From Pocillopora damicornis (taxonomy: Eukaryota), in assembly GCF_003704095.1 (NCBI RefSeq), contig NW_020845906.1:1-64000 (forward strand): a stretch of 64,000 nucleotides of DNA, in the 5' to 3' direction. Position 1 is the first letter of the stretch. Every line of letters begins with the position of its first letter. The notes beneath the pieces are model-generated. The model searched no databases, was not told the DNA's origin, and was given only the letters and a program-made list of their open reading frames with translations. A program made the position numbers and the translations under genes. This document shows, piece after piece, positions 58,753 to 63,606 of the stretch.

Positions 58753-58912
58753 CCTGGTTACATGAAAGTGGGGGACCCTAGGTAAGTGAGGTAACCTGCC
58801 TACCTGTGATTGAGAAATAGCCTGTGTTAATGTACAATCTTGCAACCCCAAGATCTCAACCTGTCTATTTGCTATAACTATTTTTTTCCTATCTCTCTCT
58901 CCCTCCCTCTCT

Positions 58913-59961
58913 CTACAAGAAAATTAGGGGACTTTCCTGATTTTTCCCTCTTTTAATGATAAATCAACTGTTTTCGTGTGGTAACTTTTAGCAACCCCTA
59001 TGACAAAGCTTGACGACCCAAACTGTCTGCATGCGAGCGATTCACCAATACCATTTAATCCTCACTGAAACAGCTCGTTTCTTGTGCTTGTGAGGGCACG
59101 AAAGTGCCCTATATCGTGGTATCGGCCAATTTAAAAGCTGCCGTGTATGTGTATGTGTATGTGTATCTGTTTGAATTTTCCAGTCAATGAAAGGTCTCAA
59201 AATTATACTGTAGGTAGAGCAATCATTTGGCAATGAAACAAGCAAACTTGAGAACAGAATCACCAGTTTTAAGTTCAACCTGGCACTTAAAGATGTTGCA
59301 ACCCCGGGGGAAGTTAGTTGCATTAAAATGCATTGTAACTCGAATGTTTGTTCTTCGGAGTAAAAGTGTTACGACATTCCTGTTGAATCATGAACGGTCT
59401 AAATAACTACATATTTTTGCACGCTTGTCTACAATGTACTGTTATCAAGCGTCTTGAGAGATAGGTTATACAATCTAATTTAAGTCATCGTTTGTCTTGT
59501 CTCCACGTCTATGCAACTCAAAGAAACACAGTCAAAGTGTTATATAATATGATGGGTTGTTCAATAAATGAGACTAGTCAGTTTTTAGAAACAACTGAGA
59601 AATTGTATCCAAAGCGGCTGGAAAAGCACCAGATTTGTTTGCGCTCTGTTTACTTTAAGTTTGATAACGAGTTAGGAAAATACCTACCGCTTCTATTGCA
59701 CTGAAAGTGACGTTTTTCTTAGTGAAACACTAAATGAGCGTCACATAAGTTCCCTGTTCAGGTTACCAAAGTGCCCTATTCAGGTCGCCAAAGTTCCCTA
59801 ATGTCACAAAAGTTTCCTAGCGTCGTCACAAAAGTTCCCTAGTGACGTCCCTTAAGTTCCCTATACACGTCATAAAAGTTCATAAGTCAAAAAGTTTCCT
59901 ATTTTCGTCACAAAAGTGCCCTTTTTTCTACCCCCCCCCCCTCTCTCTCTCTCCCTCCCCC
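58913..59961 (+). mobile_element. Non-autonomous Crypton-like unit (~1.05 kb)
   Basis: Same end architecture as the adjacent recombinase-bearing element: CTACA core, an inverted GGGACTTT motif, an internal AAAGTGCCCT at +188, nine AAAGT(T/G)CCCT-like repeats at 59743-59921 and a CT tract. Confidence 0.55.
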
Positions 59962-62900
59962 TAGAGGTATGATGGGCACTCTTGTAACTTTGTTGTCTCT
60001 TCGGCCAAAAAGTCGCCCTTTATCTCTATTGAGACCCGGTTTTCGCATTTCCTGAAACTAGACGTTGCCCTTATTCTGCCCTGTGAAAATCTTTGCCAGA
60101 CTTTCAAAGCAAAACGCATTATAAACATTTCAACTGCGTTCAGGTTACAAAAGTTCCCTATGCCGTGGAAAGGTCTACTTTTTGGTCTTAAGGCACCAAA
60201 TTTCTGCGGTATATGGGTATTTCGGAGCGTGGTACACGCCTTACAATTCACTCTTTTTCCACCTTAAATTGTGAGTTGGCTATTACGTGTGGAATAGTTT
60301 TCTCGGTTTCCGCATACACTTCTCATGTCGAGTTGAAGTTTCCAGTTTGATGAAAACACCTTTTTGCAGACAGCACAATTCGAAACTTAATTTCGTCCTT
60401 GTTAATGAGTCAAATTTTATTACATTTCTGCCAAAGGTATGTATACTATTGTAGTTTATGATTCCGAAATTTTGCAGATTTTAGTTGAATCTTTATATTA
60501 AAAAATATCTTTCATGTAGGGTTTGATAAGATGTTCCGTCAGTGAGAGAAGCACACTCTTTTTTAATGAAACATCAAATGCTTTGGTGAAGAACCTAAAT
60601 GACAGCTTTCATCCTCGAAAATCTCAGGGCATGCCAACAAAAAAGAACATTCGCAAGAACTGCGTATGTTCTTCAAGACCGGATTTTTTAATCCAACAAT
60701 AAAGGAAATAAATTTAAAATAAGAAAATCAGTAAGCCACAACACACCTTTACTTCGTGTTGAAGTCACTTAATAAATGAAATGCTCAGAATCGCTATATT
60801 TGATTCACAAGGATGCATGCTTTTCCTTTCACAAGGCAAATTCTGAAATTGCGTTAACGTCTTCTTCAGTTAAACAGTTCTTTATAACCCAGATGTTATA
60901 GAAGGTTTTGTGAAGTTTTTTATTTAACCAATTGACTATTAAGGCAAGGCAAGTTCTGCTTCACTTAGTAAAGAAAAAAAAGGTAGATCGGAAATACAAT
61001 TTGGCAATCAAAACGATCAACAGAGTCCTTTCTGTTATTGCCGCTGAGAAAAATTTACAAAATCTGCTGGATCAACCGTGCAGGTGTCTTAGCAAGCATG
61101 ACAGTAAAAGAGTTCACTGTTGCCAATGTCAGGGAACATAAGACATTTCACATTCAAGGTCATGCTCACGTAGTTCTCACAAGTAATTTACACAATTGGA
61201 TGAATGTCTTCATTCAAGAGGTAAGAAGCCAGGTGCCAGGCATTGGAGTGGACGAAAACCAGCCCGTATTTCCATCTTTTAATGGAACAAAAATGCAGTC
61301 CAGTTAAATCAAAAAAGCCATAAAATCAGTATGGGAAAAAGCAGGTATTGATGGGCCTATTCACGGCACTCTTCTCAGGAAAGGTGCCGTAACCGCAGCG
61401 CACAGGAATCACGAAAAAGAAGCCAGCAATCTTGCTGACTTGATGGCCCATAAAGAAGATACTGCTGTCCAGTAATACCAGTTTATCAGAAAAGGCACAG
61501 GCATCGGTTAAAGCATCGCAGACACGCCACATAATGATGGGGACAAAGTGCTCAACAGTCTGTAGTAAAGCGTCTAAGGAACATCCCAGGAAAGCTGGAG
61601 AAGCCTTGGAGCAAATTGGTAAAGAACAGGTCGATGAAGACTTTCAGGAAAGTGACAACAGTTCTTCACCTCGGTTACGCTGGTCCATGGCCCAAGTTTA
61701 AGAAATTCGCAACCTCTTTGGAGGAGAAATACAATGAAGTCATTATGGAATGTGTGAGAGAGAGGATCATGGAACGTGAAATCCTCCAGGTCATAGATAC
61801 GAGAATAATTTATGACAGAGTGCATGCAGAGTTGAGGAATTCTGTCGCTACTCCCGCAACTTTACCAACTGAGAAGGAGCAGCTATGTGATCGAGTAAAT
61901 CGCTTATTCAGAGAGGACATGCCTTCATCCAGTGACATTGTGCCTCCAACATCACCAAGCAGTACCACAAAAGCCTTGTTCAGTACAGAGTAGGTTCAAA
62001 CATTACTGTGTCTATGTGAGGATATGATTAAAGCAATTGCTCCAATTTCGAAACCCGAAATCACCAAGAGACTCCATGACATTTATGGAAAGCAAATCTT
62101 GGAAAAACGTAGCTAAAATCAAATTGTAAATCGTATTAAATACGAGCGGTGACAAAAGAGGAACTAGTAGGAAAAATACTGTTTGTACCATTTTAAATTT
62201 ATGCTTGTCCAGTGAGCAGCAAAAAGGTCTAAACAGCTTCAGTCGATTTATTGATCTAGTATGTCTTTCATTTAATACCATAAATTGTGTTGACCATGGG
62301 GCTTTCTTTGAACGACAGATCTTTACAAGATTGGCTTCTACGTTAAGAAACCATAGCAAGATATGCACAAGTATTTAATGCTAATATCCCAGCAAAAAGG
62401 TGGGAAAATTGTAGAGACCATGCATGCAGATGTCAGAGTCAATTGGTTTAATTTTTGGGTGTCGAAAAACATCGCTCTAACCCGGAAAATTAAAATAATT
62501 AACGTATTATCATGTTAATGTAACATGAGCCTCACACGTTGGGATGTTAGATTATTGTGTACCTACTGGTTTATCTCTTATGGCTTCTGTTCAAATAGAA
62601 GCCAATTTTGTGAAGTTCTGTAGTAATGAAACATATCCGTGATGAAGTTTGTAGTATCAAACGAACAACTTGTGCTGTTTAAAGTTTTGTGTTGCTCACT
62701 GTTTCTTCACTCCTTCAGTTGCATAAAAAGGATGAGAAACGCATTGCTAAAATTGAAATTATCGTAAACTTCAAACGGCAACCGTCTAACCTCAGACTGC
62801 GATTCGCGGTTTGTCTTATCGTGCGAAAAACGCGGTGCTAAAGGTCTCTATTGACTCTCAAAGCAACAGGACTGGTCAGCATGCAATTTCATGCATGTAC

Positions 62901-63576
62901 CTAGTTAATCTATGATTAATATTTAGGCTACGAAAATTAATGAAATGCTCACTCCAGGTAGCTTAAATTCCCATATGTTAATAAGCAACTTATTCCAACT
63001 GACTGTAAAAGAAATGACTGGAAAGTAGTAAGGAGAATTTTTATGCTGACCTATCTGAAGGTTAAGGCTGGTTATTACTAGCTGGGCAGACAAAAGCAAA
63101 TAATATGCAAACATACAGTGGTGCTTCCACTTGGCCCTGTGTTCTCGTTCTCTTTCCACACCACGAATAATTATTATTTGTTATCAGAACGATTGTCTGC
63201 CGCAATTCTCAACCCTTAACAAAACAATCATTGTTTTTTTGTGAAAGAACGTTTCCTGTCCATGTAGAACGTTTGAAGTACTACCCTTCTGATCCCCTAA
63301 CTTGATCAGCTCGGAGGTCGTCCAGTTCCCATTTTCTTAAAAGCAACTGAAGTGGTTACTTTAACAAATTTTTTAAGGGTTTAAGTAGTTCAGGAATCAA
63401 ATAATATTTATAAACTTCCATACTTACAAAAGTGCCCTAAAAGTTACCAAAGTGCCCTGCACAGTTACAAAAGTGCCTGTCACGTTACAGAAATGCTTTT
63501 TTGTGTTACACTTTTTTTGTTAGGTGCCTGAAAAAAGATACAAAAGTGCCCTTTCCTCTGGCTCTCTCCCTCTACA
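59961..63576 (+). mobile_element. Crypton-like tyrosine-recombinase DNA element, recombinase pseudogenised (~60930-62165)
   Basis: One frame from 61038 reads NRAGVLASMTVKEF..VREHKT..GHAHVVL..VFPSFNG..SS*IKKAIKSVWEKAG..GTLLRKGAVT..LADLMAHKEDTAVQ*Y, giving the R-K-(H)xxR-H-Y catalytic order. A C-terminal region ends QIVNRIKYER. No RT is present. Confidence 0.8.
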
Positions 63577-63606
63577 TACATACATACATACATACATACA
63601 TACATA
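63573..63606. repeat. (TACA)n microsatellite running into a gap
   Basis: Read directly from the sequence. Confidence 0.95.

Follow-up and report, generated by a model that had tools for sequence, protein, structure and literature searches.

Tyrosine recombinase elements of several families probably insert one way round into CT microsatellites of the coral Pocillopora damicornis

Introduction

Near the end of a 64,000-nucleotide stretch of the Pocillopora damicornis genome (NCBI RefSeq assembly GCF_003704095.1, contig NW_020845906.1, positions 1 to 64,000 of the forward strand; the whole stretch is called the window here), CT-rich tracts, arrays of a short motif and the remains of a tyrosine recombinase (YR) gene follow one another between positions 58,880 and 63,606. 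The locus raises the question of what these segments are and how they came to lie end to end. An earlier note on this DNA proposed that diverged YR elements had integrated one after another at each other's junctions, through a shared CTA(C/G)A core. We find that the region very likely consists of two broken YR elements, A and then B, standing head-to-tail inside a CT repeat, and that the whole group to which they belong probably enters long CT repeats in one orientation only, each new arrival taking its place behind those already there.

Results

Copies were collected by searching the window's own genome with DNA, with patterns and with one protein, and then from the stretches around the matches; the assembly is gapped, and all genome counts given here are lower bounds. 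The ends of about eight families were found, alignable with each other in the terminal motifs only, and the dispersed copies have discrete shared ends, which align in register for 13 right and 19 left ends. Five candidate end matches (C2698, C906, C2431, C3420 and C1387) were chance matches and were dropped before counting.

The three CT tracts that the earlier note saw ending in CTACA (58913), CTAGA (59961) and CTACA (63572) are all in place, and elements A and B lie between them; all features described are on the forward strand. The first tract, pyrimidine-rich or (CT)n with a 32-nt run (58881-58912), is the left remnant of the target, and no element right end precedes it. Element A (58913-59931; 1,019 bp) is an internally deleted, non-autonomous copy without a YR gene, and we regard it as a deletion derivative because family A carries its own decayed YR at two other loci (C2713 and C3396); another copy of the family, at C4119, is 2.5 kb long and has pyrimidine-rich sequence on both flanks. 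A C/CT tract of 29 bp (59932-59960) forms the chain junction between the right end of A and the left end of element B (59961-63561; 3,601 bp), a decayed YR element that starts with CTAGAGG and ends with CCTCTGG; beyond it, 63562-63573 is the right remnant of the CT target.

Copies elsewhere in the genome define where the elements end. Matches to the last 200 bases, the right end of B, stop at ...GTGCCCTTTCCTC(T/C)(A/G)G, which is followed by (CT)n of variable length and then by divergence, and matches to the first 300 bases after 59961 all start with CTAGAGG and are preceded by pyrimidine-rich sequence. Because right ends stop before the tract, left ends start after it and the two ends are mutually inverted, we read CTAGA from these alignments as each element's own left end, mirrored by TCTAG at the right end, and the CT tract as the host target. 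The idea that the elements end at a shared CTA(C/G)A core does not survive this comparison, since right ends stop at TCTAG or a variant of it before the tract and left ends start at CTAGA after it. Nor are the three pentamers equivalent junction cores: only two are left termini, and the third (63572), which we ruled out as a left end, is the edge of a CT tract running into a (TACA)8.5 microsatellite (63573-63606) and a 100-N assembly gap (63607-63706), with no inverted motif. CTACA follows the CT tract in none of four other B right ends. A 23-bp look-alike flanking A (58888-58910 and 59940-59962, 91%) is probably not a target duplication, because similar CCCTCCC-type decay is seen in other tracts.

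The motif YACAAAAGTKCCCT has 15 matches in the window versus 2.37 expected, a number reached in 0 of 100 shuffles, and 13 of the 15 fall in 59097-63552. The arrays reported before the second and third tracts were both recovered. That of A has about nine units (59739-59922; 9.0 copies over 59739-59926) with a period of 22, and that of B (63424-63552) has four clear units, at 63425, 63445, 63466 and 63539 with at most two mismatches; two other B copies have six units, spaced 20, 21, 20, 21 and 22 bases. In both window arrays the AAGT of the final unit starts 18 bases before the element end, and the last unit begins at this distance in nine of the ten arrays measured in this genome. Among 145 gaps between loose motif matches, 65 are of 20-22 bases and 87 of 18-24 bases, many of the short gaps arising where the loose pattern cuts a period in two. 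The arrays are part of the elements, and their spacing of about 20-22 bp is as the earlier note described it. At the right termini of the 13 arrays, TCTAG is present in five, one letter off in six, two letters off in one and truncated in one.

When reverse-complemented, the left ends match the right ends (motif, spacer and TCTAG) over about 25 bp, with a left spacer that is 3-4 bases longer. Thus the left terminus of B (59961-59987), composed of CTAGA, a spacer and the inverted motif, is an imperfect inverted repeat of its right terminus with a spacer 3 bases longer; that of A (58913-58941) has CTA(C)A, a spacer and a single inverted motif, decayed in the window copy. The inverted motif had been claimed after both pentamers, and it stands after the second (59973-59986); at 58928, after the first, there is no match within two mismatches, though two other family-A copies have it. 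A further direct motif copy lies inside each left end, 185 bases from the first terminus base in A (59097-59110) and 186 in B (60146-60159), which the earlier note had placed at +188 and +189, and the two left ends, as it also said, give no alignment over 300 bases. Such a copy is found at 184-186 in five left ends, of five families, that do not align with one another; the family C left end lacks it. The 1-3 bases directly before CTAGA are often out of CT phase (CC, CG or TTC), and these could be family-specific terminal bases or, by analogy with Tn916-type elements, carried-over overlap bases.

The association with CT repeats is consistent. Each of the 13 motif arrays in the 514,578 bases examined leads into a CT tract, always on the same strand and in a single orientation, and an end pattern that does not require CT has 8 genome-wide matches versus 1 for the control, all 8 being element ends beside CT. 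The genome has 139 R(CT)7 tracts, from which we sampled the first 63 of 100 listed and removed three known right ends, none of which is followed by a left end, leaving 60 free tracts. A pyrimidine run of at least 23 nt precedes 9 of the 11 free left ends; among the 60 sampled unoccupied tracts, 19 reach this length in total. The landing pad that had been sought in the elements' own junctions is a (CT)n microsatellite, and 11 of 16 resolved left ends have no preceding element. Copies of one host repeat, which itself runs out into a CT tract, stand before a B left end at one locus (C905:3176-3431) and, with a gap between, before an A left end at another (C3396:749505-749767), and a multicopy host repeat may supply targets.

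Gap-free junctions of the form right end-(CT)n-left end number five, at four loci, and join unrelated families in different orders: A>B in the window, D>C>A (two junctions) at C2713, C>B at C3961 and C>F at C2735. The CT tract between chained elements is 16-125 bp long. Among the 13 right ends, five are chained, six are unchained (three of which share one duplicated block) and two are undecidable; among the 19 left ends, the corresponding counts are five chained, 11 free and three undecidable, with both tallies biased by assembly breaks at long CT tracts. Arrays also lie beside a YR in seven of 30 metagenome loci from other samples; three of the seven are truncated where their contig stops, another reaches CT just at the end of its contig, two are chain junctions (L192 and L199, from one assembly) and one (L193) ends in ACAC. 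The earlier note's claim that diverged YR elements of several families are joined head-to-tail is thus borne out at several loci, and serial insertion, as it proposed, is the best account of the chain.

The decayed YR noted in the 3.6-kb unit was confirmed. The dead YR gene of B (61074-62161), read with X at stops, matches Pfam Phage_integrase at E 4.7e-7, above the cut-off, and corresponds to the catalytic domain and C-terminal part (residues 435-809) of the full-length homologue P0002, with 65% identity over the catalytic part; it lies in three frames with in-frame stops, and nearly all of residues 1-434 are missing. Homologues of 800-900 residues occur in corals (Montipora, Porites and Pocillopora) and in Clytia, and 1,760 cluster representatives match. 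R436, K466, R545, H569 and Y578 are kept in 90% or more of 48 homologues, and from the known YR motif we take these to be the catalytic set. A structure model with a mean predicted local distance difference test score (pLDDT) of 77 has Foldseek matches to XerA, XerH, Cre, lambda Int and Tn1549 Int (E 7.5e-6 to 1e-3), which identifies the protein, at the level of a model, as a YR of the Cre/Xer/lambda-Int fold; no sequence match was found in the PDB. Two N-terminal Cys/His finger-like motifs, read from the homologue sequences, and the C-terminal helical domains are candidates for array binding. A Myb family for the C-terminal part appears only in one Atlas cluster, in 40% of its members. Among the Pfam matches of the 48 homologues there is no reverse transcriptase, transposase family or other mobilising enzyme; DUF3504 (at E 0.05), GCR1_C and DUF3435 are each found in 0 of 48.

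A well-kept recombinase gene is present in the same genome. The best-kept copy is an 8.6-kb contig of family E, whose left end is off the contig, and its YR gene (C3610:1364-5696, L078) opens with an exon of 650 codons free of stops and is interrupted by a 1.7-kb GT-AG intron two codons before the likely catalytic tyrosine; a relative, L181, has no intron. Judged from its reading frame, this gene is the best candidate for a working enzyme. Apart from the two YR exons, the long open reading frames (ORFs) of the contig comprise one low-complexity and one antisense frame, and neither encodes a reverse transcriptase or a second mobilising enzyme.

Several further observations concern the other families. 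Four family F left ends (C464:1990961, C1939:99017, C2385:39476 and C2735:199) are mutually 96-98% identical, and we therefore suppose that this family was active recently; its right end was not found in the genome stretches searched. Family B right-end fragments (C55:9386-11155, C905:5874-6256 and C2478:270948-271255) lie inside a shared repeat block, with a satellite of about 42 bp upstream and common sequence after the CT tract, and were probably captured and copied by another element. At C3961:95591-105345, an insertion of about 10 kb interrupts a family-B copy 166 bases in from its left end. More YR relatives, of 23-45% identity and often two or three per contig, are present at C1296, C762, C1895, C617, C1166, C3478, C2006, C4316, C667 and others; no arrays were found in the stretches examined, and these relatives may use other targets. 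Upstream of A, a separate element of about 670 bp (window 58085-58750) has long inverted ends of 10-bp units (AAACCATCTA) and high depth in all four sequencing runs, and looks like a miniature inverted-repeat transposable element. A joint in the runs (59779>63539, side 21) connects one copy of the motif with another and was disregarded.

Discussion

We are fairly confident that the locus belongs to YR DNA transposons of multiple families, with CTAGA/TCTAG-type ends, that stand one way round in a CT microsatellite and were likely inserted successively into the same tract. Circular intermediates have been proposed for Cryptons in the available portions of two accounts (PMC3212892; PMC13465315), and from this model and the chemistry of tyrosine recombinases we can outline how such insertion might proceed. 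An element would be excised as a circle, in which the joint of right end, short CT overlap and left end would serve as the attachment site. The YR would bind the two inverted terminal sites as core sites and exchange strands within the CT overlap shared with the target, and the direction of insertion would be fixed by the strand asymmetry of (CT)n. Insertion would divide the CT tract into two usable remnants, and with both surviving, a later element could therefore land head-to-tail beside the first. The 20-22-bp arrays, with a unit roughly every two turns of the helix, and the internal motif copy at +184-186 may be arm-type sites for the extra domains of the recombinase, helping the complex to assemble.

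Several observations weigh against this picture. Two of the 11 free left ends (C99 and C2713:40966) have a merely degenerate pyrimidine flank, and in the closest metagenome relative of B's YR (L193:6234-6452; 71% DNA identity) the array ends in ACACATACACACACAC, an ACAC tract, with no TCTAG-(CT)n terminus, which from its sequence may represent a truncation or a different target. Arrays were found on just five of the 24 contigs that match the YR; the others have gaps, are cut short or belong to other subgroups. The C-terminal part of the recombinase, folded alone, has a pLDDT of 59.7, and fold searches with it gave no meaningful match. The exact crossover point is masked by the repeat, and with CT repeat on both flanks any 4-6-bp terminal direct repeat would be hidden. 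No circle joints or empty alleles are among the joints listed for the four runs, a weak test, as it covers contigs only and skips CT tracts. CryptonA, CryptonF, CryptonS and CryptonI, moreover, are described in what is accessible of PMC3212892 and PMC13465315 as being without terminal inverted repeats and as having 4-6-bp direct repeats.

Successive insertion could be extended by supposing that the end of a resident element attracts the next, the recombinase binding the terminal site and arm array so that an occupied tract is the better target and the families would share a landing pad of their own making. A left end follows 5 of 11 resolved right ends versus 0 of the 60 sampled free tracts (Fisher P 3.5e-5; 4 of 10 right ends when the window is omitted, P 2.3e-4), and 5 of 16 left ends are preceded by a right end (binomial P 0.013 if 13 of the 139 tracts are occupied), a test that we repeated without the window, because it was chosen for being a chain, with P 0.036. 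All three family-C right ends are followed by three different families, two of three resolved right ends in other samples are chained, one junction tract is just 16 bp, and the motif is common to the families. With all (CT)7 tracts as the reference, the data are suggestive of elements preferring each other's junctions, but this preference vanishes if tracts of about 30 nt or more (about 23-46 of them free) are the only targets; 5 of 16 is then expected (P 0.27-0.80), and serial reuse of few targets suffices. The last five left ends found are, besides, all free, three of the unchained right ends (six in all) have a downstream block in common and could go back to one event, and the assembly breaks bias both tallies, so that attraction is a tentative proposal and on balance unlikely. 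Doubtful to a slightly greater degree is the fullest version, a lambda-like system in corals with core sites, arm arrays in phase with the helix and a remote arm site at a fixed distance, which would insert directionally into plain (CT)n and prefer tracts occupied by relatives, giving growing mixed-family trains able to excise together.

Other accounts would replace successive insertion into CT rather than extend it. DDE elements typically combine inverted ends and subterminal arrays, and the ends here might be those of ordinary DDE cut-and-paste transposons (terminal inverted repeats plus subterminal repeats) that prefer CT, with the YR a passenger or resolvase; composites of YR and DDE parts exist (MarCry, in the accessible text of PMC3212892). 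This is improbable, as the 8.6-kb family-E contig, its left end off the contig, has no transposase ORF, the 48 homologues include no transposase family, the two ends differ in spacer length, and YR and arrays occur together in 7 of the 30 metagenome loci from other samples. Very improbable, too, is that the elements end at and recombine through the CTA(C/G)A core, with each other's junctions as their sole integration sites: the pentamer is present at all three places and CTAG is at the recombining edge of both ends, but right ends stop before the CT tract with 16 to 125 bp between elements, the third CTACA lacks the features of a left end, 11 of the 16 resolved left ends stand free, and solo copies such as that at C4119, with pyrimidine tracts on both sides, contradict it. 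Hardly credible at all is a chain that is an assembly artefact, or one old composite spread by segmental duplication. Many copies do lie at contig ends or gaps, and the B fragments at C55, C905 and C2478 share flanks and look like one duplicated block, but the order of families differs among the four loci, contigs of runs X8 and X15 span 58913, and a 513-nt contig of run X2, possibly the source sample, spans 59591-60103 with 0 differences. The 59961 junction, for which the earlier note had named misassembly as the refuting outcome, is thus bridged by independent contigs and is not an artefact.

Microsatellite-targeting YR transposons of animals receive little more than a sentence in the open literature as far as it was accessible. 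The present locus and its relatives give a precise map of the ends: a terminus, a terminal site 18 bases in, arrays of 20-22 bp and a site at +184-186. The inverted ends, the arm-like arrays of about 21 bp, the internal copy fixed at +184-186 and the mixed-family chains were not found described in the accessible text of the literature searched, a search that had Repbase Reports outside it. The conserved end geometry together with the mixed-family chains is the part most worth pursuing. If the model of arm sites and circles is true, these elements would represent phage-type integration in a eukaryote, aimed at a harmless repeat, and would merit interest both in transposon biology and as a source of a directional integrase. 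There is a practical consequence as well, in that chains of elements cause assemblies to break here, and repeat libraries would fuse these families.

Placed by host and target type only, the elements are probably microsatellite-targeting Crypton-type DNA transposons of the CryptonV group, and most likely new families within a kind that is already known, though sparsely described. The source for CryptonV is said to be Kapitonov & Jurka 2012, Repbase Reports 12:2034. In the available text of PMC8869645, CryptonV comprises target-site-specific Cryptons from cnidarians, some families of which are inserted specifically in microsatellites, and the accessible Repbase tables list it (PMC4455052, PMC5753468). 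Like these, the elements here are cnidarian YR DNA transposons: microsatellite insertion is seen at 13 of 13 arrays and at 8 of 8 matches to the CT-free pattern, the exceptions being two of 11 free left ends and L193, and homologues come from Montipora, Porites, Pocillopora and Clytia. They are also Cryptons in the broad sense, with an encoded YR, no reverse transcriptase or other mobilising enzyme found, and dispersed copies with discrete shared ends. With CryptonA, CryptonF, CryptonS and CryptonI, as the accessible parts of PMC3212892 and PMC13465315 present them, they share a YR as sole enzyme, the lack of reverse transcriptase, no visible conventional target duplication and a proposed circle. 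We have not filed them under these classical Cryptons because those are said to lack inverted ends, whereas the ends here are inverted and asymmetric; unlike CryptonA and CryptonF, moreover, their YR matches Phage_integrase and not DUF3504 or GCR1_C.

Other classes fit less well. The DUF3435 captain of Starships was not found (0 of 48 homologues), and the one Starship resemblance is a feature look-alike in the Atlas at 0.87, a lead-level score. DIRS, Ngaro and VIPER elements were rejected, as no reverse transcriptase lies beside the YR, and so was a Polinton-like element or integrated virus, the 8.6-kb copy having no capsid, packaging or polymerase ORF. Relatives on viral contigs number 0 among 153 candidate stretches, and viral fold matches are to distant integrases only, at 8-17% identity. 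A closer parallel to the chains is found in bacteria, where, in the accessible text of PMC5812530, SXT/R391 tandem arrays and ICESt1-type tandem accretion likewise place different YR elements head-to-tail at one attachment site that survives integration. Those are conjugative elements at a unique gene-end site, whereas here a microsatellite of an animal genome serves as the site. Both lambda Int and Tn916-type Int work with core and arm sites. The elements described here resemble lambda Int and Tn916/Tn1549 Int in the core-binding and catalytic YR fold, in the putative inverted core sites at their ends and in direct-repeat sites inside the element, and differ in their extra domains, where a pair of N-terminal Cys/His finger-like motifs and the C-terminal helical domains are the putative arm binders.

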